IMG/VR virus record: IMGVR_UViG_2821904334_000002
Direction: 5' to 3' (one strand)
Source of the DNA: an uncultured virus (IMG/VR IMGVR_UViG_2821904334_000002)
Taxonomy: Duplodnaviria; Heunggongvirae; Uroviricota; Caudoviricetes
DNA: 64,000 nt
Under the pieces are notes generated by a model that saw only the letters and a list, made by a program, of their open reading frames with translations, made no database searches and was not told the DNA's origin. Positions 18,960 through 57,473 of the stretch are shown piece after piece (positions within the stretch are counted from its first letter, which is position 1; each line of letters starts with the position of its first letter). The translations under genes and the position numbers were made by a program.

Positions 18960-19025
18960 GTAACAAGAGACGACCCCTATTAGTGTAAAACCTAGTAGGG
19001 GCATCTCTATAAAGGTGGTATAACT

Positions 19026-19604: not shown

Positions 19605-19623
19605 ATTAAAGGGGTTTAATACA

Positions 19624-20262: not shown

Positions 20263-20300
20263 GATACAAATTACAAAACAAGTAGAAAGAGGGATATGGA

Positions 20301-20888: not shown

Positions 20889-20908
20889 CAAGAAAATAGG
20901 GGTATAAA

Positions 20909-21565: not shown

Positions 21566-21590
21566 AAGAACTAGAAAAAGGGGTATAAAA

Positions 21591-22229: not shown

Positions 22230-22244
22230 GAAAGGGGTAGACCA

Positions 22245-22889: not shown

Positions 22890-22904
22890 AGAGGGGTATG
22901 TGTA

Positions 22905-23087
22905 GTGATAAAGAAAACAGACCCATTGAGAGTATATAAACAGTTACGAGAAGTTATAAAAGAATATAAAGAAGGTTTTCTCAACATACCGAGAAACCAG
23001 ATAGAAGATGATATAGACTATGCCTATTCTAAAGAACGTATAGGATACAATGAGTATATCGCCTTGAAAGATTATTTACAGGGGTAG
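22905..23087 (+). CDS. small hypothetical protein inside family A array
   Basis: ORF track, SD GAGGGG. Confidence 0.55.
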   Translation: MIKKTDPLRVYKQLREVIKEYKEGFLNIPRNQIEDDIDYAYSKERIGYNEYIALKDYLQG

Positions 23088-23106
23088 TAAAGGAAGGTAT
23101 GAACAA

Positions 23107-23751
23107 ATGGCTAAAACACTAAAACAAGATGCTTATAGCTTTCTAGGTAGTCAACTAGAAGAAATAGGTTCAGAATTAGTAGTTGGATATGATAAAGACT
23201 ATGGTGTAATCGGTATCGCAAAGAATAAAGCTCAACTGAAACAGGTCTTGAAAACAAAAGGTATCGCAGGAGTCATTATAGCAGATAGAGAGTCTTGTGC
23301 AGTAGGGTATGACTTTATTAAAGGAGAACAGTACCTTGGTATGTCGGAACGTCATGGTCACATATCAGACTATCTTGATAAAGAAAAAGTTGCTATCTAT
23401 GGAAACGGTGATACAGATAAACTTGTGATAGAAAATAATGATTTTATTTTAAAGCTTATGGAGTTTTTAGATAAGAATAACATATCATATAATGATTCAA
23501 CTTATGCTCCAATAAGAGGTCACAAGTATATGTATGAGATAACTGTCTATAACGGCAGGTGTTCTACTACCATATCAAAGAATCAAACATATATGAAAAC
23601 AAGTACAGATATCTTAGTTGTACATGATTCTACGAGAGACGTAGAATTTGAGTTTTACGCTGAATTTTTATGTAAAGTACTAAACATAGACTTTAATGTA
23701 GCAAAACAGTTGATTGTTAACTGTTATAACGCAAAAGGATTATACAAATAA
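23107..23751 (+). CDS. family A paralog 6
   Basis: LKQDAYSFL, GIAKNKAQLKQVL, VHDSTRDV. Confidence 0.8.
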   Translation: MAKTLKQDAYSFLGSQLEEIGSELVVGYDKDYGVIGIAKNKAQLKQVLKTKGIAGVIIADRESCAVGYDFIKGEQYLGMSERHGHISDYLDKEKVAIYGNGDTDKLVIENNDFILKLMEFLDKNNISYNDSTYAPIRGHKYMYEITVYNGRCSTTISKNQTYMKTSTDILVVHDSTRDVEFEFYAEFLCKVLNIDFNVAKQLIVNCYNAKGLYK

Positions 23752-23771
23752 AACTAAAGGGGTAGATTATA

Positions 23772-24443
23772 TTGACAACAGAAGCAAAGAAATCAATCAA
23801 ACAAGAAGCGTATAACTTTTTCGGAAAGTATTTACAAGACCCTCGTGTTTTATATGTAGTTGGTTATAATAAAGACTTTTGTGTAATCGGTATTGCAGAA
23901 GATAAAGGTGAACTAAAAGAACTTTTACAAACAAAAGGTATTGCAGGTGCGATTATGACTTCAGATGAAGGTTGTCATGTAGGTTATGACTTTGTAAAAG
24001 GAGAACACTACAAAAAAGGTCTTACAACACCTATTACAAAAAGAGATTATTACCAAAAAGAAATGAAAGACTTATATGAAAACAATCCAAACGCTGATGA
24101 TGTAATTGAAGAAAGTAACAAATTTATGTTCCCATTTATGGAGTTCCTAGACCAAATAGATGCAAACTATGGAAGTAGTTCTAAACAACCTAAAAGTGGT
24201 TCTAAATTTCTATACGATGCGACTATAAAAACAGGTCATGCTTTTATAACTATGACAAAACACAGTGCAAGATATTCAGTAGCAGGTGAAGGAATCCTAA
24301 CTATACATGACTCTAATAACGATATTGATATTCCAACTCTATCTTTATTCTTATCAAAAGCATTAAAAGTAGATAAACAGTCCATAGAAAGAGCAATTAC
24401 AGAAAGTTTATCAAATACAGACCTTAGTAAATGGTTTAACTAG
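23772..24443 (+). CDS. family A paralog 7
   Basis: IKQEAYNFF, GIAEDKGELKELL, IHDSNNDI. Confidence 0.8.
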   Translation: MTTEAKKSIKQEAYNFFGKYLQDPRVLYVVGYNKDFCVIGIAEDKGELKELLQTKGIAGAIMTSDEGCHVGYDFVKGEHYKKGLTTPITKRDYYQKEMKDLYENNPNADDVIEESNKFMFPFMEFLDQIDANYGSSSKQPKSGSKFLYDATIKTGHAFITMTKHSARYSVAGEGILTIHDSNNDIDIPTLSLFLSKALKVDKQSIERAITESLSNTDLSKWFN

Positions 24444-24458
24444 AAAGTAGGTAAACTC

Positions 24459-25154
24459 ATGAACTACAGATATGCAATTGTAAACCTAACAGAATTTAAA
24501 AGTACAAAGAAACATTTCTACTCTGAACTAGAACAACGTTTCGTTCAGAGTAGGTTTAATTCTCAAAGACCTGTAATAGCAATTAATAGTGAAAATAATA
24601 CAGTAATAGACATGATATACGGTAAAGACTTTAGAGGTCAATTGACGAAGCACATGTTGTGGGGAGATAACATAAATCTTGCTATACCTTTAAAAATTGA
24701 AGATAAGAAGGTATCTTGGGAAGAGAAACTATATAGACAATATAAGTATCAGTTTGAAACACAAAGAACTGAAGAAGGTAATGCTTTTGAAGAACATGTA
24801 AACAAAGTATTCCAAGCAGAATCACAAGGGGTAGTAAGCAATAATCAGTTTGTAATAGATTTTAAGACTTTCCTTGATACAAATAGTATAGAAGAAAGAA
24901 TGAAACCGAGTATTAAAGAAAATAGCATTGTATTACAATCAGGTGAAACAGCAAACTATCTACAAATCAAGTTATTTGAAGGGGTAGTATTATATGCCTT
25001 TGAAAATCAAATGTTATACAAGACAATAAACTCGGATGTTATCATTGTTCACGATTATCATCATGACATTGATGTAGAAAAGTTCCTAGACTTCCTTTCT
25101 CCAGCATTAACGATTGAAAGAGAAGTTTTAAAGGAATTTTTCTTAGGGAGTTAA
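24459..25154 (+). CDS. family A paralog 8 (divergent)
   Basis: KKHFYSEL, SNNQFVIDF, VHDYHHDI. Confidence 0.75.
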   Translation: MNYRYAIVNLTEFKSTKKHFYSELEQRFVQSRFNSQRPVIAINSENNTVIDMIYGKDFRGQLTKHMLWGDNINLAIPLKIEDKKVSWEEKLYRQYKYQFETQRTEEGNAFEEHVNKVFQAESQGVVSNNQFVIDFKTFLDTNSIEERMKPSIKENSIVLQSGETANYLQIKLFEGVVLYAFENQMLYKTINSDVIIVHDYHHDIDVEKFLDFLSPALTIEREVLKEFFLGS

Positions 25155-25254
25155 GTTGAAAAGGTTTTAAGAACTAGGTATACATAGGTAGACGTATACA
25201 TAGTAAGTAGGAGATTATTTCCAGTAGATTGTAAAACAAAGGAGGTAATAAAGA

Positions 25255-25935
25255 ATGTCTAAGGAATCAAAACGTGCTATATACGATGTATATAATAGAG
25301 CATGGTTTAGTAACCCTACAATTAGAGCATTAGGTTACAACGAAGACCGCTTCTGTACTGGATTGGCAACTACGCCAAAAGAACTTATTCCATTACTAAA
25401 CAATAAACAATGTGTAGGGGTAGTATTCCTTACAAGTCCTGTAGACTTTGAAGAGTATCATAAGAACACTGGTCAAAAGCTACAGATTTCAAAATTTATC
25501 AACGGAGAAGAGTTTCTTCATTACTCATACCGTGATTATGCAAACGCCATGATGGAGTGGGGTTTAGATATATCTGATAAAGAAGACTTGTATAAATATG
25601 ATAAACGATTAGAAGGAAACAGTTTATTCCTAGACTCTCTTATCAACTATGGTTTCAAAAGTAATATAGATGTAGAACCCTTTGCTATGAGAGTAGAAGG
25701 TGGCGCACAATTTCCGTTAAGAACTGTATATTTAACAAGAGGTAACTTAACATTTTGTGTAACAAGTGAGCAAGTCGCTATCAAAGTAGGGGTAGACGAT
25801 TTCATGATAGTACATGATGCAACAAGGGACATAGACTTCAAACTATTAGTAGACATTATGTCAAAAGGTTTAGGATTAAGTTATAGTGAGTTACAAACAG
25901 AACTTATCAAAGCAATTGAATTAAGTGATATCTAA
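25255..25935 (+). CDS. family A paralog 9
   Basis: KRAIYDVY, GLATTPKELIPLL, VHDATRDI. Confidence 0.8.
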   Translation: MSKESKRAIYDVYNRAWFSNPTIRALGYNEDRFCTGLATTPKELIPLLNNKQCVGVVFLTSPVDFEEYHKNTGQKLQISKFINGEEFLHYSYRDYANAMMEWGLDISDKEDLYKYDKRLEGNSLFLDSLINYGFKSNIDVEPFAMRVEGGAQFPLRTVYLTRGNLTFCVTSEQVAIKVGVDDFMIVHDATRDIDFKLLVDIMSKGLGLSYSELQTELIKAIELSDI

Positions 25936-35520: not shown

Positions 35521-35907
35521 ATGAGTGAAAGAGTATATCCAGACCATTATTATATGAGAGCAACTGAGAAAATAATAGATAGAGAGGGTACTACAGGGTA
35601 TTACTCTCGTTTTGTTGCCACAAACGAGATTTACGGATATGTAGTTGAGAGTTATAGAGTAAAAACGAAAAAGGAATTACTCGAAAAGGTAGAAGAGATA
35701 CTAGCAAGACATCTAGGAAAACTAGACGAATATACAAGAATCGAAACACCTTATGGTTGGAAATATGAGTTATACGTACACTGGTTTAATGATGATATGG
35801 ACTACAGGGTGACAGATAAAGACGGTGATTGGACTCACCATGAAACTTTTAATGTAGATATTAGTCTTTTCGAGGAAGTACACAATCCAATGTCAAAACT
35901 GGGATAA
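35521..35907 (+). CDS. hypothetical protein
   Basis: ORF track, strong SD. Confidence 0.7.
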   Translation: MSERVYPDHYYMRATEKIIDREGTTGYYSRFVATNEIYGYVVESYRVKTKKELLEKVEEILARHLGKLDEYTRIETPYGWKYELYVHWFNDDMDYRVTDKDGDWTHHETFNVDISLFEEVHNPMSKLG

Positions 35908-35921
35908 GGAGGAAATGAAAC

Positions 35922-36380
35922 ATGAAAGGTGCAAATGAGAAGTACGATTTGATTACAAGTGCAACACAAGAAGGGGTAGGAGAGTTAGAGAAACTAAAAT
36001 TAAAGTATGGTTGGGGTGGAGGTGACTCAAAAGCTTATCTTCATGGAAACCTTATCTTTGTAAAAGCAACTCATGGTAGAGGTAAAACATTCCGTATCTT
36101 TATTACAGAAGACCCTACTCAATCACACGAACAGATTAAAGAAACAGCATTAGAAGTATATGGTGTAACGGGTGGTCAATTAGGTTGGACTGAAACTTAT
36201 GGTTGGATTCATGAAGGTGCTTGGGTAGATGCAATTGAGCAATACTTTGCAACTTTAAGTAATACATTACACTTACTAAAAGAAACACGTAAGAAAGAGA
36301 AAGAAGAGAAGAATGTAGAAGACCATGTAGTGTTGAAAGGAAGACTTACAAATTTATCGGAGAAGTTTAGTCAGGTCTAA
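35922..36380 (+). CDS. hypothetical protein
   Basis: LEVYGVTGGQLGWTETYGWIHEGAW; strong SD. Confidence 0.7.
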   Translation: MKGANEKYDLITSATQEGVGELEKLKLKYGWGGGDSKAYLHGNLIFVKATHGRGKTFRIFITEDPTQSHEQIKETALEVYGVTGGQLGWTETYGWIHEGAWVDAIEQYFATLSNTLHLLKETRKKEKEEKNVEDHVVLKGRLTNLSEKFSQV

Positions 36381-36383
36381 GGT

Positions 36384-36761
36384 ATGGATTTTATAACAGA
36401 CTCTACATTCTTATTTATGGTTATAGTGAATGTATTGCAAACAGTTATGTTGTGCAGTACATTCTATGTTGTTTTCCATTTACAAGATAAAAAGAAAATC
36501 AAAACACTTATGGTCTATGTAACAGTATTAAATCTAGAATACGTTGGGGTATTAACGCTATTTTGTTTCATTAAAGGGTTTTATCCGTATGAGCAACTGA
36601 TAACTGCTATTCTAACAAACGTATTTCTACTTGTATATTTAGGCATTACAAGAAGTAAAATCGGAGAAAGAAGAGAAGTAAACGTAATGAAGAAAGTATT
36701 ATATGCTATGTGGTTAGTAGGGAATACGGTGTGTTTACTTATTTTCTTAAACTCCATGTAG
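36384..36761 (+). CDS. 4-TM membrane protein
   Basis: Hydropathy. Confidence 0.7.
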   Translation: MDFITDSTFLFMVIVNVLQTVMLCSTFYVVFHLQDKKKIKTLMVYVTVLNLEYVGVLTLFCFIKGFYPYEQLITAILTNVFLLVYLGITRSKIGERREVNVMKKVLYAMWLVGNTVCLLIFLNSM

Positions 36762-36773
36762 GAGGTGTAAAGA

Positions 36774-37160
36774 ATGAATCAATTAAACTTTGCGTTGTTT
36801 GGGATAGTAATTATTCTATTAGCAGGTACAAGTTATCTTTACTACAGTTATTATAAGACAATGAAAACAGCAGAGAGTAGAAATGAAACAGCTTATGCTT
36901 TTACATTTGGCTGTATCATTTTCCTTATATCTACATTAGGACTTATTATATCAGAACACTTAACTGTACAACAAAATAAAACAGAATTACTTTCAATCCT
37001 TATTATTTTCTTATCAAACGGTATGTTAAACATTTGGGTTCGAGGTATGTATGATTTAACGAAGTCTAGTAAGTATAAAACATGGTTAATGTTAATTAGA
37101 CTGGTTTCTGTCGCTTGTGTTGTTGTAGTTGGAGTTAATGTATATAAAGTATTAATTTAA
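36774..37160 (+). CDS. 4-TM membrane protein
   Basis: Hydropathy; YLYYSYYK, LTVQQN shared with 37185. Confidence 0.75.
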   Translation: MNQLNFALFGIVIILLAGTSYLYYSYYKTMKTAESRNETAYAFTFGCIIFLISTLGLIISEHLTVQQNKTELLSILIIFLSNGMLNIWVRGMYDLTKSSKYKTWLMLIRLVSVACVVVVGVNVYKVLI

Positions 37161-37184
37161 CAACTAAAGAGAGGAAGATGAACG

Positions 37185-37571
37185 ATGGTATTCTCATCAG
37201 TAAACATACTTATCTTTTTAACAGTAGCTACAGTATTGGTTTATTTCTATTATGGTTACAAGGCGAGGAAGCAAGGAAACAGTAGAGAAGAAATGTTTGG
37301 TTTCTTTATAGGTATTTTAATTTCGATTGTATCCTCTTTAGTTTTAATAGATATAGACAAAGTAACAGTTTCTCAAAACCGTTTACATGTAGTGATTGTC
37401 TTAGCTTCTTTCTTAGCATTAACTGTATTAAACTTATTTATGCGTTATAAGTGGCATATCCAAGGATTACGAGAGTTCAGACTACATTTAAATATAGGAA
37501 GAATCTTAATTCTTGTTTGTGTGGGTGTTATGATATTCAAAACACATGTATCATGGGTACACCACGTATAA
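37185..37571 (+). CDS. 4-TM membrane protein
   Basis: YFYYGYK, GLREFRLHLNIGR vs GLVQYKLKLHINR in next gene. Confidence 0.75.
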   Translation: MVFSSVNILIFLTVATVLVYFYYGYKARKQGNSREEMFGFFIGILISIVSSLVLIDIDKVTVSQNRLHVVIVLASFLALTVLNLFMRYKWHIQGLREFRLHLNIGRILILVCVGVMIFKTHVSWVHHV

Positions 37572-37584
37572 AGAGAGGGAAACA

Positions 37585-37953
37585 ATGCAGACGATTTTAT
37601 TTTACATTATAGTAGGATTAGTTACCTTTCTAGGTAGATGTTATTATGATTATGGTAAGACAGCAAAACATAAAGGAAACAATGTAGAAAAGATAGTAGG
37701 TTATGCAATCGGTACGCTATCAGCTATTGTTTTTGGATTCCTTTTATATGATGGTGGACAGATAAATGAAGAAAAAGACTTATTAGTAAATTACCTAATT
37801 ATTTTTCTTGCCTTGATAACAATGATAACAGGAATAGATTTTAGAGAAAAGGTAAAACTAGAAGGTTTAGTACAATACAAACTTAAATTACATATAAACA
37901 GATTTATGATAATTTTCTGTTTAGGGTTTTTAGTAGCAAGAATTATTTTATAG
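37585..37953 (+). CDS. 4-TM membrane protein
   Basis: Start moved to ATG after GAGAGGG. Confidence 0.75.
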   Translation: MQTILFYIIVGLVTFLGRCYYDYGKTAKHKGNNVEKIVGYAIGTLSAIVFGFLLYDGGQINEEKDLLVNYLIIFLALITMITGIDFREKVKLEGLVQYKLKLHINRFMIIFCLGFLVARIIL

Positions 37954-37967
37954 AAAGGGGTATTACA

Positions 37968-38411
37968 ATGCAAACAGTTTTGTTTATTACCTTAACGGTA
38001 ATTTCCATTCTTGTAACTGTACTAAACATGTACAGTACAAGAACAGTATTAACAAAAGCGAGTAAAGAAGAAGGGATAGACGCTGAAAAAGAGAAAGGTT
38101 CGGCAGTAGTCCTAGTAACTTTATTGTTAATTATGTGTGTAGGAACTTCTTTTATTGCAGGTTCAGTAGAAACATCAATTAAACTACTAACTTATTACAT
38201 TCTTATTTCACTTATTATGAGTGCAGTTCCAGTTGTTTTTATAAAACTAAGAAAGAAGCATGAAACATTATCAAGTCTTGTTCCAGTCTTTTCTATACTT
38301 GTATTATTTTATCCTGTAAGTGAACTTCTAGATATAATGTTTACAGTATGGAAAGAAGTAACAGACATACCCTACCCATATATTAACTTCATTTCATGGT
38401 GGTGGCGTTAA
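37968..38411 (+). CDS. 4-TM membrane protein
   Basis: Hydropathy. Confidence 0.7.
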   Translation: MQTVLFITLTVISILVTVLNMYSTRTVLTKASKEEGIDAEKEKGSAVVLVTLLLIMCVGTSFIAGSVETSIKLLTYYILISLIMSAVPVVFIKLRKKHETLSSLVPVFSILVLFYPVSELLDIMFTVWKEVTDIPYPYINFISWWWR

Positions 38412-38414
38412 ATT

Positions 38415-38801
38415 ATGCATAATATGACTGATTTTTCTATTGTAGTAAACTTTATTGTATTCATCGGACAGCTTATCTTATTCGTTAAGTTGTTCCGATT
38501 GAAAGCAAATGAAGATTTTGTCAATCACAAACGATTATTGGTCTATGCAACCTTTGGAGTTGTTGTGTTACTTTGTATTAGCTTATCTTTAAACGCTGAA
38601 TACTTAGTACCACTTATATTAGCAATCTTCTCAAACGTATTTGCATTTGCTATTTGTATAGCAAGACAGATGTATCGAAAAGAAAGACGAAAGATAATGA
38701 AGAGAAGAATTTGGATTATAAGGGATGCTATTATGGTGTTCTTTATGTTTTCCAATCTATTGCATATCATTATGGTCATTAAACCAATTATACAAGAGTA
38801 G
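38415..38801 (+). CDS. 4-TM membrane protein
   Basis: LAIFSNVF vs TAILTNVF in 36384. Confidence 0.7.
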   Translation: MHNMTDFSIVVNFIVFIGQLILFVKLFRLKANEDFVNHKRLLVYATFGVVVLLCISLSLNAEYLVPLILAIFSNVFAFAICIARQMYRKERRKIMKRRIWIIRDAIMVFFMFSNLLHIIMVIKPIIQE

Positions 38802-39015
38802 GAGTTAAGAATAAATCATGATATTAGACAAAGTAGATAAGAAAAAGAAACCGTTAATTAAACTAATGTGTTTTTGCGTAGTATGGCTAGTACTTGCATC
38901 ATTAATTTGTACATTTACAGGTACTAAACATGATGTACAGACTCAGACAGGTCATAAAGTAGAAGTAACAGAAAAATAAAGGTAAGGTGTTAATAACAAC
39001 AGGAGGTAAGACAGC

Positions 39016-39462
39016 TTGATTTTACTAGGTGGGTTATTATTTATTGGGCTAACTTTGTTTACGTTCGTGCAAATACTCATATACATGTTAATTGTGCTAT
39101 TCTACGTGAAAAATGATTTATTTTACATGATTACAGACAGAGCATTTAGAAGGAAGACAAGTAATTCTAAATATGAAAACTTGAGAAGATTTAAAAATGA
39201 ATTAATCAAATTATCGGTGATATATTGTATATTTGTAACTTTTTCATTTTTCTTTGGACTTGCTTCGGTGTTATTTTTAACAATATTACGAGCAGGAACT
39301 ACAATCTTACTAACAATTCTTATGTCATATGAGTTAAGAGCAATTCGTCAAGAAGAAGACTTATATACTAAGGTATTGAAAATAATCATTTCTCTAGGAG
39401 CAGTTGGTTTAATCCTTTTAACTGTTTTCCATACAATAGAGAAAATGGTATACAAATTCTAA
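39016..39462 (+). CDS. 4-TM membrane protein
   Basis: SD AGGAGGT, hydropathy. Confidence 0.7.
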   Translation: MILLGGLLFIGLTLFTFVQILIYMLIVLFYVKNDLFYMITDRAFRRKTSNSKYENLRRFKNELIKLSVIYCIFVTFSFFFGLASVLFLTILRAGTTILLTILMSYELRAIRQEEDLYTKVLKIIISLGAVGLILLTVFHTIEKMVYKF

Positions 39463-39544
39463 ACAAATAAGTAGAAAGGAGAAACTACAAAGGTACAATA
39501 AACAGTTTCTTTGAACGATTTTAAATAAGAGAGGATAACCAACA

Positions 39545-39967
39545 ATGACAGCATTTTGGAGTTTTATTGGGACAAACATAGAGCCATTATTTCACTTATT
39601 CGTGAACATAATGGTTTTAGTGTTTCAAGGTATAATCTTGAAAGGGTTTATAGAAGACTACTTTAAAGATAGACACCTAAGAAAGTTAAAGTATGATAGA
39701 GGTTTTGCATTGATAACGTTAGGTGCTTTCATCCTTGTTATGATATTATCTAAACTAATGCATGTATCTATTTACGGTCTTATGGTAGTAGGTACAATTA
39801 ACTCATTACTAATCATCGTAATCATTACATTGGTATTAGAAAACGGAAAAGCAAAACTATTAAACTCATTCATTACTTTACTAATTACTATTTGGGGTGT
39901 TGGAAACATCATTTTAGCTGTTCAATTAGTAAGAGAAGGAATCGAACTATGGAGTATGCTAAAGTAG
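39545..39967 (+). CDS. 4-TM membrane protein
   Basis: Hydropathy. Confidence 0.7.
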   Translation: MTAFWSFIGTNIEPLFHLFVNIMVLVFQGIILKGFIEDYFKDRHLRKLKYDRGFALITLGAFILVMILSKLMHVSIYGLMVVGTINSLLIIVIITLVLENGKAKLLNSFITLLITIWGVGNIILAVQLVREGIELWSMLK

Positions 39968-39982
39968 AAAAGAGGGGTAGAC

Positions 39983-40381
39983 TTGGATTACGTGTTTCTT
40001 GGTATTTACATGATATTTCAACTTGGAGGTATGATGGTCTTTAGTCTATACCTTATAAACAAAAACCTATTAGAAAATATGTATAGACGAGTAGATACGG
40101 AGGATACAGTAGAAAGGTATAGCTTAGAACTAGCATCTATAAGTTTAATTGTGGTATCTGTTATGGGACTTGTACAAACACAACTACACTTCTTACCCTA
40201 CAACATGATATCAGGGGTAGGAACGTTACTAGCTATATCTATTACTATGTTTTTCAGTACCGAACTAAGTAAGAAAAAGGTAACTACTCGATTCTCAAAG
40301 CATAGAAATAAGGCATATAAACTGTCTTCTATTGTGTGTTTAGCGGGGTATATAGTTAGAATCATATTTTTGTTAAAGTAA
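39983..40381 (+). CDS. 4-TM membrane protein
   Basis: Hydropathy. Confidence 0.7.
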   Translation: MDYVFLGIYMIFQLGGMMVFSLYLINKNLLENMYRRVDTEDTVERYSLELASISLIVVSVMGLVQTQLHFLPYNMISGVGTLLAISITMFFSTELSKKKVTTRFSKHRNKAYKLSSIVCLAGYIVRIIFLLK

Positions 40382-40387: not shown

Positions 40388-40416
40388 TTGACAAATTGCT
40401 AAACTTATGGTATAAT
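40388..40416 (+). promoter_or_regulatory. sigma-A type promoter overlapping a terminator hairpin
   Basis: TTGACA-N17-TATAAT. Confidence 0.85.
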
Positions 40417-40466
40417 AGTTATATAGTTAAGGAAGAAATTCTTTAATTATATAGCTATTTTTTTTT
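40414..40466 (+). terminator. 21-bp stem terminator overlapping the -10/start site
   Basis: AATAGTTATATAGTTAAGGAA-GAAA-TTCTTTAATTATATAGCTATT + T9. Confidence 0.7.
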
Positions 40467-40494
40467 GATTTAGAAATAAAGGAGGTAAACTAGT

Positions 40495-40758
40495 ATGTAT
40501 GAAGAAGATTATGCTTCTGAGGGTAGAGTAACGATTATAAATGGTTGTAGATACTTAACAAACGTAAGTGATGGTGGAGAGAATAGATATATTGAACTAT
40601 GTAATGAATTAGGAATCAAACACCATGTAGAAGCAATGGCATACGATAGGTTTGATAGACCTATTTTGGGTATGACAATGGTAGGATTTTATATAGATAA
40701 AGACTTTAAAGACTTTCAAGGATTTTGGAATAAACTAAAAGAACGAAAAGGAGTGTAG
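40495..40758 (+). CDS. hypothetical protein, paralog of 40759..41046
   Basis: YLTNVSDG...LGI.HH.E...FWNKL vs FLTNLSNG...LGI.CH.E...FWKRV. Confidence 0.75.
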   Translation: MYEEDYASEGRVTIINGCRYLTNVSDGGENRYIELCNELGIKHHVEAMAYDRFDRPILGMTMVGFYIDKDFKDFQGFWNKLKERKGV

Positions 40759-41046
40759 ATGGTGTTGAGTGTACTAGGTGATGGATTTAGAAGAGACTTG
40801 CATGGTCGAAGAATGGTAGGAAATTGTAATTTCTTAACTAATTTATCAAACGGGGATGAAAAACTATTCAAACAAGCATGTGATGATTTAGGGATTGAGT
40901 GTCATATAGAGAAAGTTGTATTTGATGGGTTAAATCGTAAAGTTACAGGTACAGACGCAGTAGCATTTTACATGGAAAAGACTTTAGAAAATCTAGACGC
41001 ATTTTGGAAAAGAGTTAGAGAATTAGAAGAGTTGAAGATTTCATAG
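40759..41046 (+). CDS. hypothetical protein
   Basis: Paralog of preceding gene. Confidence 0.75.
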   Translation: MVLSVLGDGFRRDLHGRRMVGNCNFLTNLSNGDEKLFKQACDDLGIECHIEKVVFDGLNRKVTGTDAVAFYMEKTLENLDAFWKRVRELEELKIS

Positions 41047-41098
41047 AGTCTTACAAACGAAGTTATTATAATATGCGAATAATATAGTAATAGTAGAG

Positions 41099-41776
41099 GT
41101 GAGAAAGTTGGCTAGTTACACGGAAGACCAATTGGAAAGAGCAATAGAATTATATAAAGATAAAGCAAACAATGGAATGAGGTTACGAGATATCTTACAA
41201 GAAACAAACGTACCTTCAAGTGCCTTATATTCATCTATAAGAGAACAAGAAATTGAGTTGCAAGGTAAAACAAGAGCAAAAGAGTATCCGAACTTAGAGG
41301 AAGCGTTAAAGTTGTACGCAGATAGGGGTAGTAACGGTCTAACTGTCAATAGTATAGCATCTAAATACGGTATCCCAACTTCAAGATTGTACTTAGAAAT
41401 AGATATCAGGGGTATCAAACCAAGAATGCAAGGAAGAAAGTATACAGAACAAGACGTAATCAAAGCAGTAGACTTATATGTAAATAGACCTACAAACGGC
41501 TTAAAGGTTAGAGATATTTTATCACAAACAGGCGTAACACAAACAGCCCTATATGGGGAATTAAATAGACAAGGTATTGTAAGTACAGATAACAATAGAG
41601 AGCAAAGAGATTTAAATTCACTACTGAGACGTAAAGGTAATTTAGATAAAGCAGTAGACTTATTTATACATAAAGATACTCATGGGTTAACTGTTACAAA
41701 GATTCTTAAAATCGCAAAAGTAAGTACAACAACGTTATATGGGGAATTAAGAAAACGAGGTTACAAAATAGACTAA
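41099..41776 (+). CDS. multi-HTH DNA-binding protein, 4 Psq/Hin-like modules
   Basis: Repeats of YTxxxLxxAxxLY..GLxVxxIxxxTGVxxxxLYxELxxRGI. Confidence 0.8.
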   Translation: MRKLASYTEDQLERAIELYKDKANNGMRLRDILQETNVPSSALYSSIREQEIELQGKTRAKEYPNLEEALKLYADRGSNGLTVNSIASKYGIPTSRLYLEIDIRGIKPRMQGRKYTEQDVIKAVDLYVNRPTNGLKVRDILSQTGVTQTALYGELNRQGIVSTDNNREQRDLNSLLRRKGNLDKAVDLFIHKDTHGLTVTKILKIAKVSTTTLYGELRKRGYKID

Positions 41777-41784
41777 TAAGGGGA

Positions 41785-42642
41785 ATGGTGAGGAACATGG
41801 TTAAAGTATTAGAAACGGATGAACTTGTAGAAGTGGAGATTACTAGAGACCAACAAATCGCTAAAGCACTTGAGTTACATAAGAGTAATATGAAAGTTAA
41901 AGATATTATAAAAGAAACTGGTATTCCTGAGTCTACATTATATCGTATCTTTAGAGCAAACAATTTAAGAAAGCAACCTAGAAAGAATAAGATAGACGTA
42001 GAAAAGTTAGAGGAAGCATTAGATATGTTTGTAAACAGGGATGAGTTAGGGTTAACTGTTAAACAAATTTCAGAGAAAACAGGTATCTCCAAGCAAACTA
42101 TCTATGTAGAAGCAAAGGCAAGAGAGGTAGACTTTGAATTTGTCGGTAAGGGGTATACAAAAGAGTCTTTAGAGAAAGCAGTTGAAATGTATCAAAGACC
42201 AATAAAAGAAAAGATTACACTAAAGAAAATCTATGAAGAGACAGGTGTTTCTAGAAGTGTATTGTATAAAGAATTAGAGTCACGGGGTATTGAAATCAGA
42301 CATGGTAATCGTTTATCTTATACGGAAGAGTCTTTAGAAACTTCAGTTCATTTATATAAGAACCGTCATGAACTAGGGATAGGAGTTTCAGACATCATAG
42401 AAAGAACAGGTATCTGTATAAACGCCTTACATAGAGAGTTAAGAAAGAGAAAACTAATTAAGGGTAATACAAATAGAAAATACCCGATTAGACTAGTAAA
42501 TCAAGCAATACGTTTAATCCTTAATAAAGAAAACAATTATTCAGTTGCTCAAGTATCAGAGCAGACTGGTATTAAGGAAAGCACATTGTTTGCAGAATTA
42601 AGAGATAGGGGTATACGATTACGAGAACGGAAGGCGATGTAA
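41785..42642 (+). CDS. multi-HTH DNA-binding protein, 5 modules
   Basis: TGIPESTLY, TGISKQTIY, TGVSRSVLY, TGICINALH, TGIKESTLF. Confidence 0.8.
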   Translation: MVRNMVKVLETDELVEVEITRDQQIAKALELHKSNMKVKDIIKETGIPESTLYRIFRANNLRKQPRKNKIDVEKLEEALDMFVNRDELGLTVKQISEKTGISKQTIYVEAKAREVDFEFVGKGYTKESLEKAVEMYQRPIKEKITLKKIYEETGVSRSVLYKELESRGIEIRHGNRLSYTEESLETSVHLYKNRHELGIGVSDIIERTGICINALHRELRKRKLIKGNTNRKYPIRLVNQAIRLILNKENNYSVAQVSEQTGIKESTLFAELRDRGIRLRERKAM

Positions 42643-43116
42643 GTGGCGTTAGAAAAGCAAACTGATTTAGAAAATGCTATTTCTCTATATGTAAACAGAA
42701 AACGACTAGGATTAACAGTTAGACAGGTATGTAAACAAACTGGGATTCCTCTTCATAAGCTTTACAGTGGGTTAAGAGAATTAGGGTTAGCAATTAAACC
42801 GACTAAAAGGGTAGATAAAGAGAAGTTAAATCAAGCGGTTGAGTTGTATTTAGAGAAAGACAAACTAGGGTTAATTGTAGAAGACATAGTAAACAAAACT
42901 GGAGTATCAGCAAGTGTTATTTATAGTGAATTAAGAGACAGAGGATACAAGTTAAAAACCTGTGGTCGTAAATTTGAACAAGAAGATTTAGAAGAAGCAA
43001 TCTCTTTATTCATGCAAAAGAAAGAACTAAAGTTATCAGGTGAAGAGATATCTAGACGAACTAGAGTACCAAGACAAACAATTTATTGGCATTTGAACCG
43101 AAGAGGTTTAAAGTAG
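42643..43116 (+). CDS. multi-HTH DNA-binding protein, 3 modules
   Basis: TGIPLHKLY, TGVSASVIY, TRVPRQTIY. Confidence 0.8.
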   Translation: MALEKQTDLENAISLYVNRKRLGLTVRQVCKQTGIPLHKLYSGLRELGLAIKPTKRVDKEKLNQAVELYLEKDKLGLIVEDIVNKTGVSASVIYSELRDRGYKLKTCGRKFEQEDLEEAISLFMQKKELKLSGEEISRRTRVPRQTIYWHLNRRGLK

Positions 43117-43125
43117 GAGGTTGCA

Positions 43126-43773
43126 ATGAGTGAGCCAAACCTAGCATTACGAGAAGCAGTGTTTATGTATTTGTACCGAAAAGATTATAATATCAAACTA
43201 GAAGATGTTGTAGAACAAACAGGAGTTTCAGAGCAGGATATACTAGATGAATTAGTTAGACTTGGTGTACCATTAGAAATAGACCAACTTCAAAAGTATG
43301 CAACTAGTACGTTAGATGTAGCTATTCTCTTACATTTAGGTAGAGAAACAAATGGAATGTCAGTACAAGATATCGCAAACAAAACTGGTATCCACCGTTC
43401 CGCTTTATACAATGAACTAAAGAGAAGGGGTATTTTAGACTTAAAAAGTCTTACACCTGACCACAAGTATGATATGGAAAAGGCAATTGAATTAATATTA
43501 AACCGACAAGAAAACAAGTATAGATTAATTGATATAGAGTTAGAAACAGGAGTATCAAAATCATCATTGTATCGTGAATTAGAAAACAGAGGTATTAAGG
43601 TTGAAAACGGTAATCGTAAAACACTAAAGAAAACGGTAGAGAAAGCATTATCCTTATATGAAGATAGAAACACAAACGGGTTATCAGTACGTCAGATTAT
43701 TTCTCAAACAGGGGTATCGAGAAGTACGTTATATGCAGAATTAAAGAAGAAACAGGGAGAGAAAGATGAGTAA
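43126..43773 (+). CDS. multi-HTH DNA-binding protein, 4 modules
   Basis: TGVSEQDIL, TGIHRSALY, TGVSKSSLY, TGVSRSTLY. Confidence 0.8.
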   Translation: MSEPNLALREAVFMYLYRKDYNIKLEDVVEQTGVSEQDILDELVRLGVPLEIDQLQKYATSTLDVAILLHLGRETNGMSVQDIANKTGIHRSALYNELKRRGILDLKSLTPDHKYDMEKAIELILNRQENKYRLIDIELETGVSKSSLYRELENRGIKVENGNRKTLKKTVEKALSLYEDRNTNGLSVRQIISQTGVSRSTLYAELKKKQGEKDE

Positions 43774-44401
43774 TCAAAAAGTAAACAACCTAAGAAAAGC
43801 AGTATCCATGTGGGTCTATCGTAAAGACCTAGAATTGTCAAATGAGGAAATCAATCAAGAAACAGGGGTAGCAGTAGACGAACTAGAACAAGAGTTAGTA
43901 AGGGTTGGGTTAATTTCTATTAAGAAAGAATTAAATCGAGCAGTAGACTTATATGTAAACCGATATAAGTTAGGTTTAACAATGGATGAAATTGCAGAGA
44001 AAGAGTTTATTTCAAAAAGTACCTTATATGCTGAATTAAAGAACAGAGGTATTGACTGTAAAAGTATAGGTAGAACGTACAAACAAGAAGATTTAAACTT
44101 AGCAGTATCACTATTCCTAACTCGTGAAGAAAGAGGTTTACTAGTAAGAGACATCTTACAGAAAACAGGCGTACCACATTCTGTACTATATAAAGAGTTG
44201 AAGAAAAGAAACATTGATTGTAATGAAAGTAACCAGTCAGCTATTAATAGTGCAATAGATTTATACACAAACAGAAAAGCAACAGGAATAAAAGTATTAG
44301 ATATTTTAGAAAGAACAAAGATATCTAGTCAAACATTCTATAAAGAACTAAAACTAAGAGGTATTCCATTACGAGGTCGTAGTAAGAAGCAAGTAGCTTA
44401 G
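43766..44401 (+). CDS. multi-HTH DNA-binding protein, 4 modules
   Basis: TGVAVDELE, EFISKSTLY, TGVPHSVLY, TKISSQTFY. Confidence 0.8.
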   Translation: MSNQKVNNLRKAVSMWVYRKDLELSNEEINQETGVAVDELEQELVRVGLISIKKELNRAVDLYVNRYKLGLTMDEIAEKEFISKSTLYAELKNRGIDCKSIGRTYKQEDLNLAVSLFLTREERGLLVRDILQKTGVPHSVLYKELKKRNIDCNESNQSAINSAIDLYTNRKATGIKVLDILERTKISSQTFYKELKLRGIPLRGRSKKQVA

Positions 44402-44453
44402 TTATAAACAAGATGAAAATTAATAGAACTTAATACTAGGAGGATAAACATAC

Positions 44454-45926
44454 ATGTCAAAAGGAATTGAGTTTGAAATTGGTAGTTTTCTAGGTGAATT
44501 TGATGTAACAGACTATACAATGAGTCAAGTTGAGAAATTAGAAGATTACATTGAACAAGCAAATACGATAGCAAATATGAAAACTGGTGAGTTATTAGTT
44601 GTAGACGCTATTTATGATGAAATGGTATCTATTTTACGCCAAGTAAAACCTGATTCACATTTATTAACTGAGTTATGGGAAACTGGTGATGAAGACAACA
44701 TTGAAGGAAATCAGTATACGGAATTACTCGTTAAAAACCCAATGAAATCTATCTTAACGGTTAAATCTTTTAATAGTGCTGAAATGGGTATCTTTAAAAG
44801 TAATTATCCTGTAGACGAACCTGTTACTTTACATGGTAGTTTAAAAGAAAACGGTTGGGGTATTCGTATTGCTTATATGGACGGTGAATACGTATCAGCA
44901 ACTTCAAGAGCGAGAGCAAGTGCAGGTAAAGACTTAACAAGACAAGTTGGGGTTGTATTAGAGAAGAGAGGTCTGCTAACGTTAGAAGATATACCAAACG
45001 GATTAGCGGAAGTACGAGGTGAGTTGTTACTATCTTTCGAAAACTTAGATGAAGCAAGAACTTACAATCCAAACATCGTAAGTGCATTCAGTGGGGTAGC
45101 AAGTATGGCACGAGATAGTGCAAGTGAAGAGGAGAACGCTTTACTTGATTTCGTAGCCTACACAATTATCCATGAAGACCTAGAATTTGAATCAAAGTCA
45201 GAAGAGTATAGATACTTGAAAGAATATTTAGGTTTCGAAGTTCCTTTAAACTGGACAATCGAAGATGTAACGGCAGATGAACTAGAAGAGGTATTAGAAG
45301 ACACATTAGCCGAGATTGAGGAAGAGGTGTTTAACGAAGAAGAACCGTATTCGTACTTTACGGATGGGGTAGTTATTCAAATAGACGATTATGCTACTTT
45401 CCATGCTTTAGGTGATGATGGTGGTAAATATAATAAAGGAAACATCGCATTAAAAGTAGGAGCATGGTCACAAGATAATTACTATGGATATGTACAGTAC
45501 ATAGACTTCTCAAAAGGTAAGTCAAAACTAAGTCCAGTAGCAATTTTAGGTACTGAGCCAAACCAAGCAGTATTTGAAATAGACGATGAAACGTATCAAG
45601 GTCTAGACGAAGTAATGGAGTATCATGATATTGAAACCCTAAACTTCAACTTAGCTGATTGTGTTAAGAATTATAAAGACTTAGGAGTAGGTACAGCAAG
45701 TGGAAATAAAGTAAGACGAGTTCCACTATATGAAGTAGCAAACATGATTTTACTTGGCATAACTCCAAACTCTGTTTTATACTTCAAGTATGGTGGAGAA
45801 GCAGGGGTAGTTCCTTGTCGTGAAGACGGCTCTTTAATTAAGGACATTAAAGGTGTTAATTATATAGACGGATTATTTACAGAGGAAGACATTATTGGTT
45901 CGGAAGAAGGAGAAGAATGGGCTTAA
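44454..45926 (+). CDS. ligA: divergent NAD-dependent DNA ligase-like protein (Ia + adenylation + OB domains only)
   Basis: DAIYDEM, PMKSI, LKENG (motif I), GKDLT, EVRGELL, YFTDGVVIQID, IALK, LSPVAIL; no Zn-finger/HhH/BRCT. Confidence 0.78.
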   Translation: MSKGIEFEIGSFLGEFDVTDYTMSQVEKLEDYIEQANTIANMKTGELLVVDAIYDEMVSILRQVKPDSHLLTELWETGDEDNIEGNQYTELLVKNPMKSILTVKSFNSAEMGIFKSNYPVDEPVTLHGSLKENGWGIRIAYMDGEYVSATSRARASAGKDLTRQVGVVLEKRGLLTLEDIPNGLAEVRGELLLSFENLDEARTYNPNIVSAFSGVASMARDSASEEENALLDFVAYTIIHEDLEFESKSEEYRYLKEYLGFEVPLNWTIEDVTADELEEVLEDTLAEIEEEVFNEEEPYSYFTDGVVIQIDDYATFHALGDDGGKYNKGNIALKVGAWSQDNYYGYVQYIDFSKGKSKLSPVAILGTEPNQAVFEIDDETYQGLDEVMEYHDIETLNFNLADCVKNYKDLGVGTASGNKVRRVPLYEVANMILLGITPNSVLYFKYGGEAGVVPCREDGSLIKDIKGVNYIDGLFTEEDIIGSEEGEEWA

Positions 45927-45955
45927 TCTGTAGAGCGATATAATCAAACGAAAAC

Positions 45956-45990
45956 AAACCGAGCAGAAGTGTTCGGTTTTTCTTTGTTTT
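45956..45990 (+). terminator. intrinsic terminator
   Basis: AAACCGAGCA-GAAG-TGTTCGGTTT + T-rich. Confidence 0.7.
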
Positions 45991-46013
45991 GTTCGATTAT
46001 TTAAGAGACTATA

Positions 46014-46042
46014 TTGACAAAATTAGAAACATATGGTATAAT
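46014..46042 (+). promoter_or_regulatory. sigma-A type promoter
   Basis: TTGACA-N17-TATAAT. Confidence 0.85.
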
Positions 46043-46106
46043 AGTATTAAGAGTTAAGGTAATATAGTATAGAAAATACTCAAACAGATAGGGAGAGAAA
46101 AGGGTT

Positions 46107-55580: not shown

Positions 55581-57473
55581 ATGTCAGTTGAAGAATTAAA
55601 AGACCAAGAAGTACATGGTGATGAAGAAGATTTTGAAGATGAAGACGAACTTATCGAAGAAGAAGACGATGAGGAAATCATCGAAGAGGAAGACGATGAA
55701 GAACTAGATGACGATGATGACGAAGAGGAATTCATTGAAGAAGACGAGGACGAAGAGTTCGAGGAAGAAGATGAAGACCTAGAGGAAGATGATGAGGATT
55801 TCGAGGAAGAGGACGAAGACCTTGACGAAGAAGATGATGAGGAATTGGAAGAAGACGAAGATGATTTAGATGAAGACGAACTTGATGATTCTGAAGACGA
55901 AACTATCGAAGAAGACGAGGATGAACATCTAACGTATGAAGAAGATGGTCAAGAAGTCGAAGACGAACCTGTTATTGGTGAAGGTATGTTTCAACCAGTA
56001 GAAGAACCAAGTGAAGTATTCATACAAAACCCTTCTGTTGATTTAGGAAGTGGTATTACTTTAGATGCTCCAACTGATGAAAAACCGCTACCTAAAGTCG
56101 TATTAGAAAAGAACATGGATACAGACGAAATTGAAGATTCTGAGTCTCGTGAAACATTGAGTTTACTAAGTAGTACATCTGAAACGTTATCTGATATGGG
56201 TATAGAAAAGGAAAATTACACGCTAACTTACGTAAATAATATCAAACTTACGAAAATAGCGATTAGTGAGCCAATGAAGAAAGGTAGAGCATCGACAATT
56301 GTTGGTTTAACGAAGTCAGTCGGTGAGTTAGGGGTAGTAACGCCAATTCACTTAATGAAACTAGAAACCGCAGACGAAGATGAAGATTCAGACATGCCTG
56401 CTTATCAAACCATTGATGGGTTAAGACGTATCTACAGTTCTGTTAAGAATAATTTAGAAACAATTCCTGCAATTGTTTGGGACTTTAGAGATAAACAGAA
56501 AGGTAGACAAGCCGCACTTATCTTAGGTCTTACACTAAACCGTCAACAAAAGAGAACATGGTCTGAGATTTGGGATTTATATACTATCTTAGAACGTCAA
56601 ACTCAAATTAAGCCGAATACATTTGAGTCTCTCTTCCAGTTAGAGGGCGGAGACGCTATGAAGTTAAAAGACGTAGTTCTAAGTGAATATACAGAAGTAA
56701 AAGAAGAGTTGTTCTCTAATGAAAAGACTCTAGAACAATGTTATAAAAACTTACAAAAGCTACGTAAAGAAGAAAATACATTAGAGATTGAAGACCAAAC
56801 TGGTTTCGCTGAAACAAGTGATATGGCAAAAGATGTAGTAGAAGGGGAAGAAAAACCTGAGGTTCAATTATCTAATGATGAAGTATTAGCTATCCTTGAA
56901 ATGGGGGAAGCATTAGATAAAGAGATAAACCCTGATGATTTTGGCAGTATGGGTGATATGTTTGGGGAAGTTACACATCAAGATGTGAAAAACCGTAAAC
57001 CAGTTGACCCAATAATCAAACAGCAGACTTTAGCTAGAGATGACTACCGTTGTAGATGTTGTGGAACTGGTGGGAAAGCCTTCTTATCTACGATAATTTT
57101 CCACCACATCGTTCCTGTTCATGCAGGTGGACCGGATACTGTAGCTAACGGTTTAACACTTTGCGACTCTTGTCACATCACACTTCATGTAATAGAACGA
57201 AACGGTAGACTTCCTCTTACAGAAGAAGAGTTTAAAGAGTATGAACCAGAAGACCAATGGAGAATCAAGAATATCCTTCATTATGCTCGAATTGCTATCA
57301 TGGCAGGTAAGAATAAAGGTCTAACTGACGAACAAAGAAAAGAATTAGCTAAATCAGGTACAAGACATCGTATGCCAGGTGAAGGAAACAAAGAAAATCA
57401 ACAAGGTTTTGCTTTATATGAACAAAACTTAGCAGAAGCAGACAAAGTGGAAGAAGAAAATACAGCATCTTAA
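55581..57473 (+). CDS. acidic-tract / ParB-Srx-like / HNH endonuclease fusion protein
   Basis: ~120-aa D/E tract; LTKSVGELGVVTPI...TIDGLRRI...IPAIV; LARDDYRCRCCG...HHIVPVHAGGPDTVANGLTLCDSCH. Confidence 0.85.
   Translation: MSVEELKDQEVHGDEEDFEDEDELIEEEDDEEIIEEEDDEELDDDDDEEEFIEEDEDEEFEEEDEDLEEDDEDFEEEDEDLDEEDDEELEEDEDDLDEDELDDSEDETIEEDEDEHLTYEEDGQEVEDEPVIGEGMFQPVEEPSEVFIQNPSVDLGSGITLDAPTDEKPLPKVVLEKNMDTDEIEDSESRETLSLLSSTSETLSDMGIEKENYTLTYVNNIKLTKIAISEPMKKGRASTIVGLTKSVGELGVVTPIHLMKLETADEDEDSDMPAYQTIDGLRRIYSSVKNNLETIPAIVWDFRDKQKGRQAALILGLTLNRQQKRTWSEIWDLYTILERQTQIKPNTFESLFQLEGGDAMKLKDVVLSEYTEVKEELFSNEKTLEQCYKNLQKLRKEENTLEIEDQTGFAETSDMAKDVVEGEEKPEVQLSNDEVLAILEMGEALDKEINPDDFGSMGDMFGEVTHQDVKNRKPVDPIIKQQTLARDDYRCRCCGTGGKAFLSTIIFHHIVPVHAGGPDTVANGLTLCDSCHITLHVIERNGRLPLTEEEFKEYEPEDQWRIKNILHYARIAIMAGKNKGLTDEQRKELAKSGTRHRMPGEGNKENQQGFALYEQNLAEADKVEEENTAS

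Follow-up and report, generated by a model that had tools for sequence, protein, structure and literature searches.

Multi-domain readers of DNA are known from the paired-domain and Tc3 proteins and from the Myb proteins, and in Tc3 and Pax two linked helix-turn-helix (HTH) domains read adjacent sub-sites. Pipsqueak binds GAGA-type repeats, and regulators of the TetR family are defined by a C-terminal ligand-binding or dimerisation domain. The plasmid pXO16 of Bacillus thuringiensis sv. israelensis is a conjugative plasmid of 350 kb. According to passages of one report, the fold of TnsD-type selectors comprises several HTH domains, by which target DNA may be recognised (PMC10293859). The locus described here lies in a window of 64,000 nucleotides (nt), i.e. 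the whole stretch of DNA that was analysed, which is recorded as an uncultured virus (IMG/VR IMGVR_UViG_2821904334_000002) and belongs to a contig of 359,548 bp. At positions 41099–44401 of this window, a cassette of five paralogous genes, in the following designated A to E, encodes proteins which consist of HTH modules placed end to end. The proteins of this operon, which is situated on a pXO16-like megaplasmid, are probably sequence-specific DNA-binding proteins that act on composite sites and serve as plasmid regulators or architectural factors. Each of the proteins would bind double-stranded DNA sequence-specifically, each of the non-identical modules would contact a short sub-site via the start of helix 3, and one multi-module protein would thereby read a long composite site. 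A to E are most likely regulators or architectural factors in the DNA transactions of the element itself.

Architecture of the cassette and fold of its modules

The cassette comprises five intact open reading frames (ORFs) on the + strand with 20 copies of a module of approximately 54 amino acids (aa), split as 4+5+3+4+4. This distribution had been reported in a first-pass annotation made from the sequence, and it was confirmed by the ORFs and by module calling, for which the turn and the recognition helix served as anchor. The four residues opening the recognition helix (helix 3) of each module, here called the tetrad, were likewise all found as annotated and in the same order. The genes are listed below with their Pfam scores, their isoelectric point (pI), where given, and the ratio of nonsynonymous to synonymous substitution rates (dN/dS) in comparison to the pXO16-type orthologues.

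41099–41776, + strand: gene A, 225 aa, GTG start, four HTH modules (41105–41263, 41267–41425, 41429–41587, 41615–41773) with the tetrads PSSA, PTSR, TQTA and STTT; TetR_N 55.8, HTH_23 30.0 and HTH_7 24.8 bits; pI 9.6; dN/dS 0.09
41785–42642, + strand: gene B, 285 aa (281 aa with the alternative start at 41797 of the database gene call), five HTH modules (41818–41976, 41980–42138, 42142–42300, 42307–42465, 42466–42624) with the tetrads PEST, SKQT, SRSV, CINA and KEST; HTH_23 62.3, HTH_7 58.9 and TetR_N 42.7 bits; pI 9.5; dN/dS 0.14
42643–43116, + strand: gene C, 157 aa, three HTH modules (42643–42798, 42799–42957, 42961–43113) with the tetrads PLHK, SASV and PRQT; HTH_17 28.3, TetR_N 26.8 and HTH_23 24.8 bits; pI 9.7; dN/dS 0.19
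43126–43773, + strand: gene D, 215 aa, four HTH modules (43126–43278, 43285–43443, 43447–43605, 43606–43767) with the tetrads SEQD, HRSA, SKSS and SRST; HTH_7 45.3, TetR_N 44.7 and HTH_23 39.9 bits; pI 6.4; dN/dS 0.13
43766–44401, + strand: gene E, 211 aa, four HTH modules (43766–43921, 43904–44062, 44066–44224, 44216–44374) with the tetrads AVDE, SKST, PHSV and SSQT; HTH_23 29.8 and HTH_7 26.2 bits; dN/dS 0.26

The genes are separated by 8 nt (A/B), 0 nt (B/C) and 9 nt (C/D); the genes D and E share 8 nt. The spacing from module to module is 47–62 aa, mostly 53–55, with short and mostly basic linkers between the HTH domains, and the coding capacity of about 1,090 codons accommodates 20 distinct HTH domains. 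The pairwise identity among the modules is 30% on average (range 15–46%). Since the module tree is star-like, with A1+B1 (95/94), D1+E1 (92/89) and C1 with D1+E1 (80/77) as the only supported groupings, it does not show in which order the modules were duplicated. When a profile of the 20 modules was compared to a pXO16-type record of 349.6 kb, 20 matches were obtained (E 5e-22 to 4e-15), which all lie in the orthologous cassette; outside this cassette no profile match occurred, and the order of the modules is kept 1:1. The repeat pattern is thus far beyond chance.

In searches of the whole proteins against Pfam, HTH_23 (PF13384, gathering cut-off 24.6 bits) exceeded the cut-off in all five proteins, and HTH_7 (PF02796, 23.8 bits) as well as TetR_N (24 bits) did so in four; HTH_7 fell below it only in C (14.5 bits) and TetR_N only in E (19.0 bits). 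Of the 20 single modules, seven matched TetR_N at E ≤ 0.01, six HTH_7, five HTH_23, five HTH_11 and one HTH_psq. In agreement with the annotation, Pfam matched no catalytic domain in A to E, and the Resolvase domain was not found there either. The assignment to the Psq class, on the other hand, did not hold, because HTH_psq (PF05225, 20.4 bits) reached only 20.1 bits in protein A and 14.8 bits in protein E, was unlisted for C and was not among the best 25 families for B and D.

The model of a single module, predicted from the alignment of all 20 modules (predicted local distance difference test score, pLDDT, 86), contains helices at residues 3–19, 21–24, 28–35 and 39–52. It shows a tri-helical HTH fold with the turn between helices 2 and 3 and resembles solved HTH structures. 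Its best structural neighbour is TrpR-like (Z 6.9, 1.6 Å over 50 residues), followed by the DNA-binding domains of TetR (Z 5.2), Tn3 resolvase (Z 5.2) and Sin resolvase (Z 5.1); Mu transposase and the Myb-like Cdc5 are also among the neighbours. Of the fold expected in the annotation, the HTH part therefore stood, with HTH_7 in a share of the modules, and the Psq part did not. The AlphaFold2 model of protein D consists of four separate helical domains (pLDDT 76.9, predicted template modelling score, pTM, 0.39), with linkers of low confidence at residues 106–112 and 161–165. Because the arrangement of the domains in this model is arbitrary, Foldseek searches with the whole protein were uninformative. 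According to these models, the modules would be independently folding, generic tri- or tetra-helical HTH domains, arranged like beads on a string and not as a solenoid.

In a sequence search of the PDB, the best genuine matches were N-terminal domains of the TetR type (Mce3R with 1.8e-4, plus several TetR regulators). Matches to pentatricopeptide repeat (PPR) proteins in this search and in Foldseek were rejected as an artefact, in which ten weak matches to helix 1 were repeated (template modelling score 0.15–0.21) and no single stretch passed alone. A protein atlas gave only leads below 0.9, namely multi-HTH clusters, many of them from Bacteroidota and some labelled DUF7317, a family that is absent from the Pfam tables of the proteins, in which the best 25 families were listed.

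The arrays of the cassette are an unusual arrangement built from known kinds of HTH domains. The C-terminal domain of serine recombinases (HTH_7; Hin, gamma-delta/Tn3, Sin) is also a small HTH of three helices, whose turn and helix 3 are of the G-[VI]-x-x-S/T-x-L-Y type, whereas A to E possess no catalytic domain, carry three to five tandem modules instead of one and match HTH_7 in only six of the 20 modules. With IS630/Tc1-type transposases and paired-type domains, A to E share homeodomain-like modules of the HTH_23/HTH_28 kind, HTH_23 being matched in every protein; they differ in having three to five modules instead of two, in standing alone and in the presence of five paralogues in one operon. 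Pipsqueak/CENP-B Psq arrays likewise have several small HTH modules, one after the other, in a single chain, and the Psq-type HTH of human LCoR is among the structural matches of the module model (Z 4.3; Foldseek rank 13), but these arrays are eukaryotic, and A to E score below the HTH_psq cut-off with one matching module. As for the TetR family, TetR_N in four of the five proteins and the TetR-type PDB matches are set against the lack of the C-terminal domain in A to E, in which HTH modules follow each other end to end. In pXO16-type records the orthologue of protein C is nevertheless labelled 'TetR/AcrR family'; the ligand-binding domain is absent from protein C. TnsD of Tn7 would work by the same principle as proposed for A to E, i.e. 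target reading by multiple HTH domains, but has a TniQ core and a transposase partner, of which A to E have neither.

The first modules of the last two proteins had been singled out as acidic, and this was borne out by net charges of −6 (D1) and −3 (E1); both modules have an acidic third helix and have lost the conserved tyrosine. D1 and E1 probably avoid contact with DNA and may serve protein contacts. That the modules in general bind proteins and act as decoys or adaptors, which sequester host or plasmid factors via a degenerate HTH fold, is very unlikely. Beside D1 and E1, the net negative charge of five of the 20 modules and the pI of 6.4 of protein D would fit this explanation. However, 15 modules are basic and show the canonical turn and helix 3 pattern, and the HTH structural neighbours with Z of at least 5 are all DNA binders. 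The pI of the other four proteins is 9.4–9.7.

Variation and conservation of the recognition helices

Across the 20 modules, the four columns of the tetrad have entropies of 2.12, 3.25, 1.92 and 2.48 bits. The first-pass annotation had contrasted these variable residues with a conserved scaffold. The tetrads do vary, but the contrast was overstated: 20 of the 47 columns (numbered 11–57) have an entropy of at least 2.4 bits, and only two of them lie in the tetrad and 18 elsewhere. The variation therefore affects the exposed surface as a whole instead of a code position alone. For this reason, the proposed code resembling that of zinc fingers or transcription activator-like effectors (TALE) could not be maintained. 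As in TALE, zinc-finger and PPR proteins, the modules of A to E are arranged in tandem and differ from each other in residues of the surface that is presumed to make contact; in contrast to these proteins, the repeats of A to E are 30% identical and not near-identical, and the variation is not limited to code residues. In addition, the predicted model of protein D, computed from an alignment of nine rows, shows no packing of the domains against each other (pTM 0.39) and hence no solenoid packing as in TALE and PPR proteins.

The comparison with the pXO16-type orthologues gives a different view of the same positions. A to E align with them without gaps and with dN/dS values from 0.09 up to 0.26; the cassette genes are under purifying selection. 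Differences between the orthologues were found at 10 of 220 positions in helix 3, at 19 of 160 in helix 1 and at 19 of 160 in helix 2. The tetrad differs at only 2 of 80 positions, versus 131 of 1013 other positions (Fisher p=0.0037). When only columns were considered that vary between modules, 1 of 40 positions at the start of helix 3 differed, versus 72 of 358 in the other module-variable columns (p=0.004). Some tetrads (PTSR, SKQT, CINA, SKST and SSQT) are still identical in relatives from B. cereus and B. toyonensis with 58–66% identity.

Positions that vary between paralogous modules and yet are frozen between orthologues look like specificity determinants. The recognition helix shows this pattern at its start, as had been assumed for it in the annotation, and the conservation of the tetrads fits a module-specific recognition. 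A more far-reaching version of this idea is an address system, in which up to 18 DNA-competent modules would each read a sub-site of 4–6 bp via the first residues of helix 3 and the five arrays would specify a handful of composite sites of 15–30 bp, which control replication, transfer or host takeover by pXO16-type megaplasmids. We regard this version as an outside possibility.

Transcription unit, host replicon and relatives

Signals predicted from the sequence indicate that A to E, two small ORFs and a ligase-like gene form one sigma-A operon. The following features, all on the + strand, belong to this unit or adjoin it.

40388–40416, + strand: sigma-A-type promoter with TTGACA, a spacer of 17 nt and a TG-extended TATAAT (12 of 12 hexamer matches)
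40495–40758 and 40759–41046, + strand: two small acidic paralogous ORFs (87 aa, pI 5.3, and 95 aa, pI 5.65), the first genes of the unit
44454–45926, + strand: NAD-dependent DNA-ligase-like gene, 490 aa, the last gene of the unit
45956–45989, + strand: terminator-like hairpin with a 10-pair stem (45956–45979) and a T-rich tail
46014–46042, + strand: next consensus promoter, located 3' of the hairpin
4473, 6137, 12371, 17141, 34561, 40388, 46014, 49180, 60834 and 63044, + strand: the ten perfect promoters of the window

The two small acidic ORFs have no match in Pfam or PHROG, and the pXO16-type record calls them hypothetical proteins; dN/dS between the 95-aa ORF and its pXO16-type copy is 0.28. 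The ligase-like protein matches DNA_ligase_aden as the sole Pfam family (1.5e-13) and phrog_3869, NAD-dependent DNA ligase (2.9e-24), and it shows 97% amino acid identity to the pXO16-type copy with dN/dS 0.05. In its last ~170 residues, no family of Pfam was matched at E ≤ 1, and hence the DNA-binding domains that LigA normally carries at its C-terminus were not seen.

Promoters of the perfect TTGACA-17 nt-TATAAT type occur ten times in the window, all on the + strand, versus 0.12 expected. They share an invariant TTGACAAA and T-TG-TATAATA, and with them the array of genes on one strand falls into separate transcription units. The possibility of operators at these shared promoters was dropped, as they have nothing in common beyond the extended −35 and −10 regions. 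Contigs from two runs of one study that are labelled as RNA-seq, which derive from a ~90%-alike pXO16-type relative, cover 40535–45935 (X11) and 40535–46100 (X7). Since DNA may be present in such libraries, these contigs cannot show transcription, and their coverage of the unit is at most compatible with its expression. In the stretch that separates the promoter from the first small ORF (40465–40535), the contigs of this relative contain unrelated letters (69 skipped, 93 between), and therefore the two elements have different operon leaders.

The sigma-A promoter, the ligase-like co-gene and the block of replication-type genes make it most likely that A to E are plasmid-encoded regulators or architectural factors. 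The same context has to be considered for a second explanation, according to which A to E are architectural or nucleoid-associated proteins of low specificity, which by many weak HTH contacts compact, bridge or partition the 350-kb plasmid. This would be consistent with several basic DNA-binding domains on flexible linkers, with a strong promoter of the constitutive type, with a location among genes for topoisomerase II, a DnaB-like helicase and a ligase-like protein, and with the fact that neither the repeats of the window nor the ten promoters yielded a composite target site. However, a generic binding to the DNA backbone would not require the residues at the start of helix 3 to be the best conserved ones, as they are among the module-variable columns, and the five diverged paralogues with their fixed module order suggest distinct jobs. 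A purely architectural function of low specificity is therefore rather unlikely.

Several observations weigh against a sequence-specific binding of A to E to composite sites. The structural Z scores of 5–7 may only reflect a common arrangement of helices, values below 8 being middling according to the tool, and Foldseek found no match at E ≤ 0.001 for the models of a single module and of four modules, even though its top rows for the single module were all HTH domains. The alignments used for folding were shallow, with nine rows for protein D and 20 rows for the single module. Protein D is not basic, and a quarter of the modules (5 of 20) carry a net negative charge. At 58–66% identity, the excess conservation of the tetrads is not significant (16 of 52 versus 260 of 641 positions differ, p=0.19). 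Furthermore, the ten promoters conserve only the extended −35 and the −10 region and offer no candidate for a composite target, and besides them no other dispersed non-coding repeats were found in the window; near the cassette, there were neither tandem nor dispersed non-coding repeats.

The DNA of the cassette matches ten plasmids of B. thuringiensis with a size of ~350 kb over its full length and with 88.8% identity, among them NC_018516.1 (pBTHD789-1) and NZ_CP013277.1 (349,600 bp; apparently pAM65-52-2-350K). Passages of PMC6199540 equate both pBTHD789-1 and pAM65-52-2-350K with pXO16, and describe coding sequences that are all in one orientation, many paralogues and a suggested phage-like nature, for which no plaques were found. 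Homologues exist for few of the coding sequences according to passages of PMC9673590 and PMC6199540, and in those of PMC9673590 the relaxase and the origin of transfer (oriT) of pXO16 are still given as unidentified. The window is coded on one strand, as is pXO16, and encodes topoisomerase II subunits, a DnaB-like helicase and the NAD-ligase-like protein. Together with the pXO16 match, these features identify the element, as judged from its sequence, as a new relative of the pXO16-type conjugative megaplasmids of the Bacillus cereus group and not as a known phage. A phage origin, as implied by the virus record, is thus not supported: among 50,697 phage records, neither the cassette (megablast) nor protein B or the related protein P0009 (both tblastn) gave a match. 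A scan of IMG/VR with protein B was negative as well, and one with P0009 resulted in a single weak partial match (L002).

Two runs of tandem paralogous ORFs were observed in the window. About 12 ORFs of 190–230 aa are located at 17252–25935, one of which weakly matches a DnaB-like helicase family, and about 12 ORFs of 125–150 aa at 35521–40381, of which three examined translations (39016–40381) look hydrophobic. These runs are consistent with the many paralogues of pXO16 mentioned in passages of PMC6199540. An ORF of 630 aa at 55581–57473 starts with an acidic repeat rich in Glu and Asp, which makes up its first third and contains tandem DNA repeats of 21–54 nt (55599–55966); behind this repeat, the ORF has matches of the ParB-like and HNH endonuclease kind.

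In PLSDB, the cassette is limited to the ten pXO16 records, plus one Paracoccus protein with 25% identity. A HMMER search over 1.84 billion representative proteins retrieved 145 proteins at E ≤ 1e-3, 31 of them at E ≤ 1e-10. Close relatives, which are cassette genes of other elements of the B. cereus group, are found as consecutive accessions on a 126-kb contig of B. cereus (P0014 and P0003; MEC2463771.1/MEC2463772.1) and on a 324-kb contig of B. toyonensis (P0010 and P0012; PHE64442.1/PHE64443.1), and one more on another B. cereus contig (P0011; MGF2715830.1). The cassette therefore exists in variant compositions in the B. cereus group. Species-representative genomes searched with P0003 and P0012 gave no match, nor did a metagenome scan with P0009. 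Among the relatives, a multi-module family of ~360 aa exists, and some relatives contain long arrays of near-identical modules. A metagenome scan with alignment A3 detected one locus (L003, Ga0207670_10000139), which encodes at 7995–9086 a multi-HTH protein of 363 aa with 44% identity to P0009. On this phage-like contig of 48 kb, the gene is the first one divergent from the genes for small and large terminase, portal and major head protein, a position typical of phage regulators.

Other relatives bear on the question whether A to E descend, without catalytic activity of their own, from the arms with which serine recombinases, transposases or homing endonucleases bind DNA, and act as accessory factors or competitors at sites of recombination, transposition or transfer origin. 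In P0038, a resolvase catalytic domain precedes two such modules (Pfam HTH_7 and Resolvase), the N-terminus of P0021 is HNH-like by eye only, Pfam matching HTH_7 alone, and the distant relative P0025 has a Pfam match to TnsD. Beside the first two, HTH_7 as one of the best Pfam families and the alignment of the module model with the DNA-binding domains of Tn3 and Sin resolvases and with Mu transposase point to such a descent, and oriT of pXO16, which is unassigned like the relaxase in the passages of PMC9673590, would be an example of a suitable site. Against it, TetR_N and HTH_23 are just as similar in sequence, and neither a recombinase nor a site with inverted repeats adjoins the cassette in the window. 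We consider this descent quite unlikely as an explanation in its own right; it would moreover be a sub-case of sequence-specific binding by A to E and not a true alternative to it.

The GGGGTAG word and its link to the cassette

The first-pass annotation had named the cassette as the obvious candidate for a reader of the word GGGGTAG. This word occurs 59 times on the + strand of the window and not at all on the − strand, and it is the top 7-mer by the ratio of observed to expected copies (59 versus 5.9). The core is (A)GGGGTA(G/T), with GGGGTA being found 122 times on the + and once on the − strand. Inside genes there are 32 copies of GGGGTAG, versus 4.3 ± 1.9 (maximum 9) in 300 shuffles of synonymous codons; 28 of these 32 are read in one frame as Gly-Val codons (GGG-GTA-G). 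This spelling is used in 28 of the 40 tripeptides of Gly-Val followed by a codon starting with G, while GGG accounts for only 15% of the Gly codons. About 22 of the 59 copies are located 1–6 nt 5' of start codons and can serve as ribosome-binding sites. Examples are:

2201, 5407, 23759, 35182, 47709 and 50501, + strand: (A)GGGGTA(G/T) before start codons
11202, 24828 and 45093, + strand: (A)GGGGTA(G/T) inside genes

In the pXO16-type record, GGGGTAG was counted 306 times forward and twice in reverse, versus 32 and 2 for the word written backwards as control. Three unrelated megaplasmids of the B. cereus group, in which the cassette has no match at E ≤ 1e-5, contain 13/10, 8/21 and 15/18 copies, approximately as many as their controls; one of them is from strain JW-1, with an accession adjacent to that of a pXO16-type record. 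GGGGTAG is genuinely enriched, and this enrichment is peculiar to pXO16-type DNA. No information is contained in the 25 nt that flank the motif on each side. A regular spacing of the copies was considered and discarded (coefficient of variation 0.87 versus 0.98 at random; 19% of the simulations were as low). A literature search for GGGGTAG resulted only in matches of the primer type.

A dedicated reader of this word would coat or mark the DNA of the element or silence the host chromosome. In its favour, the motif is real, strand-biased and in excess over synonymous shuffles, and it is element-specific, as it is not enriched on the three unrelated megaplasmids. The co-occurrence of cassette and motif, which had been proposed as a check, was seen in so far as both replicons with the cassette are enriched and none of the three without it is. 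However, the two carriers are close relatives (88.8% identity) with hundreds of other genes in common, and their co-occurrence is therefore not independent. A single invariant word with uninformative flanks is also difficult to reconcile with 20 different recognition helices in arrays of three to five modules, which would need composite sites. The copies before start codons and those in frame as Gly-Val further argue against such a reader, as does the strict strandedness, which suits RNA, single-stranded DNA of the transferred strand or the lagging-strand template, or a polar translocase or nuclease better than an HTH protein binding to a duplex. It is therefore highly improbable that the cassette is the GGGGTAG reader. 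The bolder version of the address system, in which one class of modules would read (A)GGGGTA(G/T) and tie the cassette to a strand-marking system, is also less likely than the address system as such.

A signal that acts on a single DNA strand, in priming or as a polar site, or one that acts at the RNA level, seems more natural than an HTH site. The copies upstream of genes may have a role in ribosome binding, and the other copies may represent a recognition word of a primase or a polar, Chi-like site.

No description of the cassette was found among the listed papers that mention pXO16 or by a phrase search for tandem HTH arrays, a literature that did not include the paper in which the sequence was first published (Makart et al. 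2015); the term 'helix-turn-helix' does not occur in PMC6199540, and the passages of PMC6199540 and PMC9673590 contain no description of the cassette. With 145 matching proteins among 1.84 billion representatives, stand-alone arrays of three to five diverged modules of the HTH_7/HTH_23 kind are rare; they recur on mobile elements. The plasmid pXO16 is unusually fast and promiscuous in conjugation, and the greater part of its 350 kb is without explanation. A conserved operon of 20 HTH modules beside replication-type genes is a concrete candidate for the regulatory or DNA-organising layer of this element. The binding sites of A to E would reveal whether linked HTH modules work as a modular code, and if the specificities of the modules should prove to be separable and re-orderable, prokaryotes would possess in these proteins an HTH-based equivalent of zinc-finger arrays.

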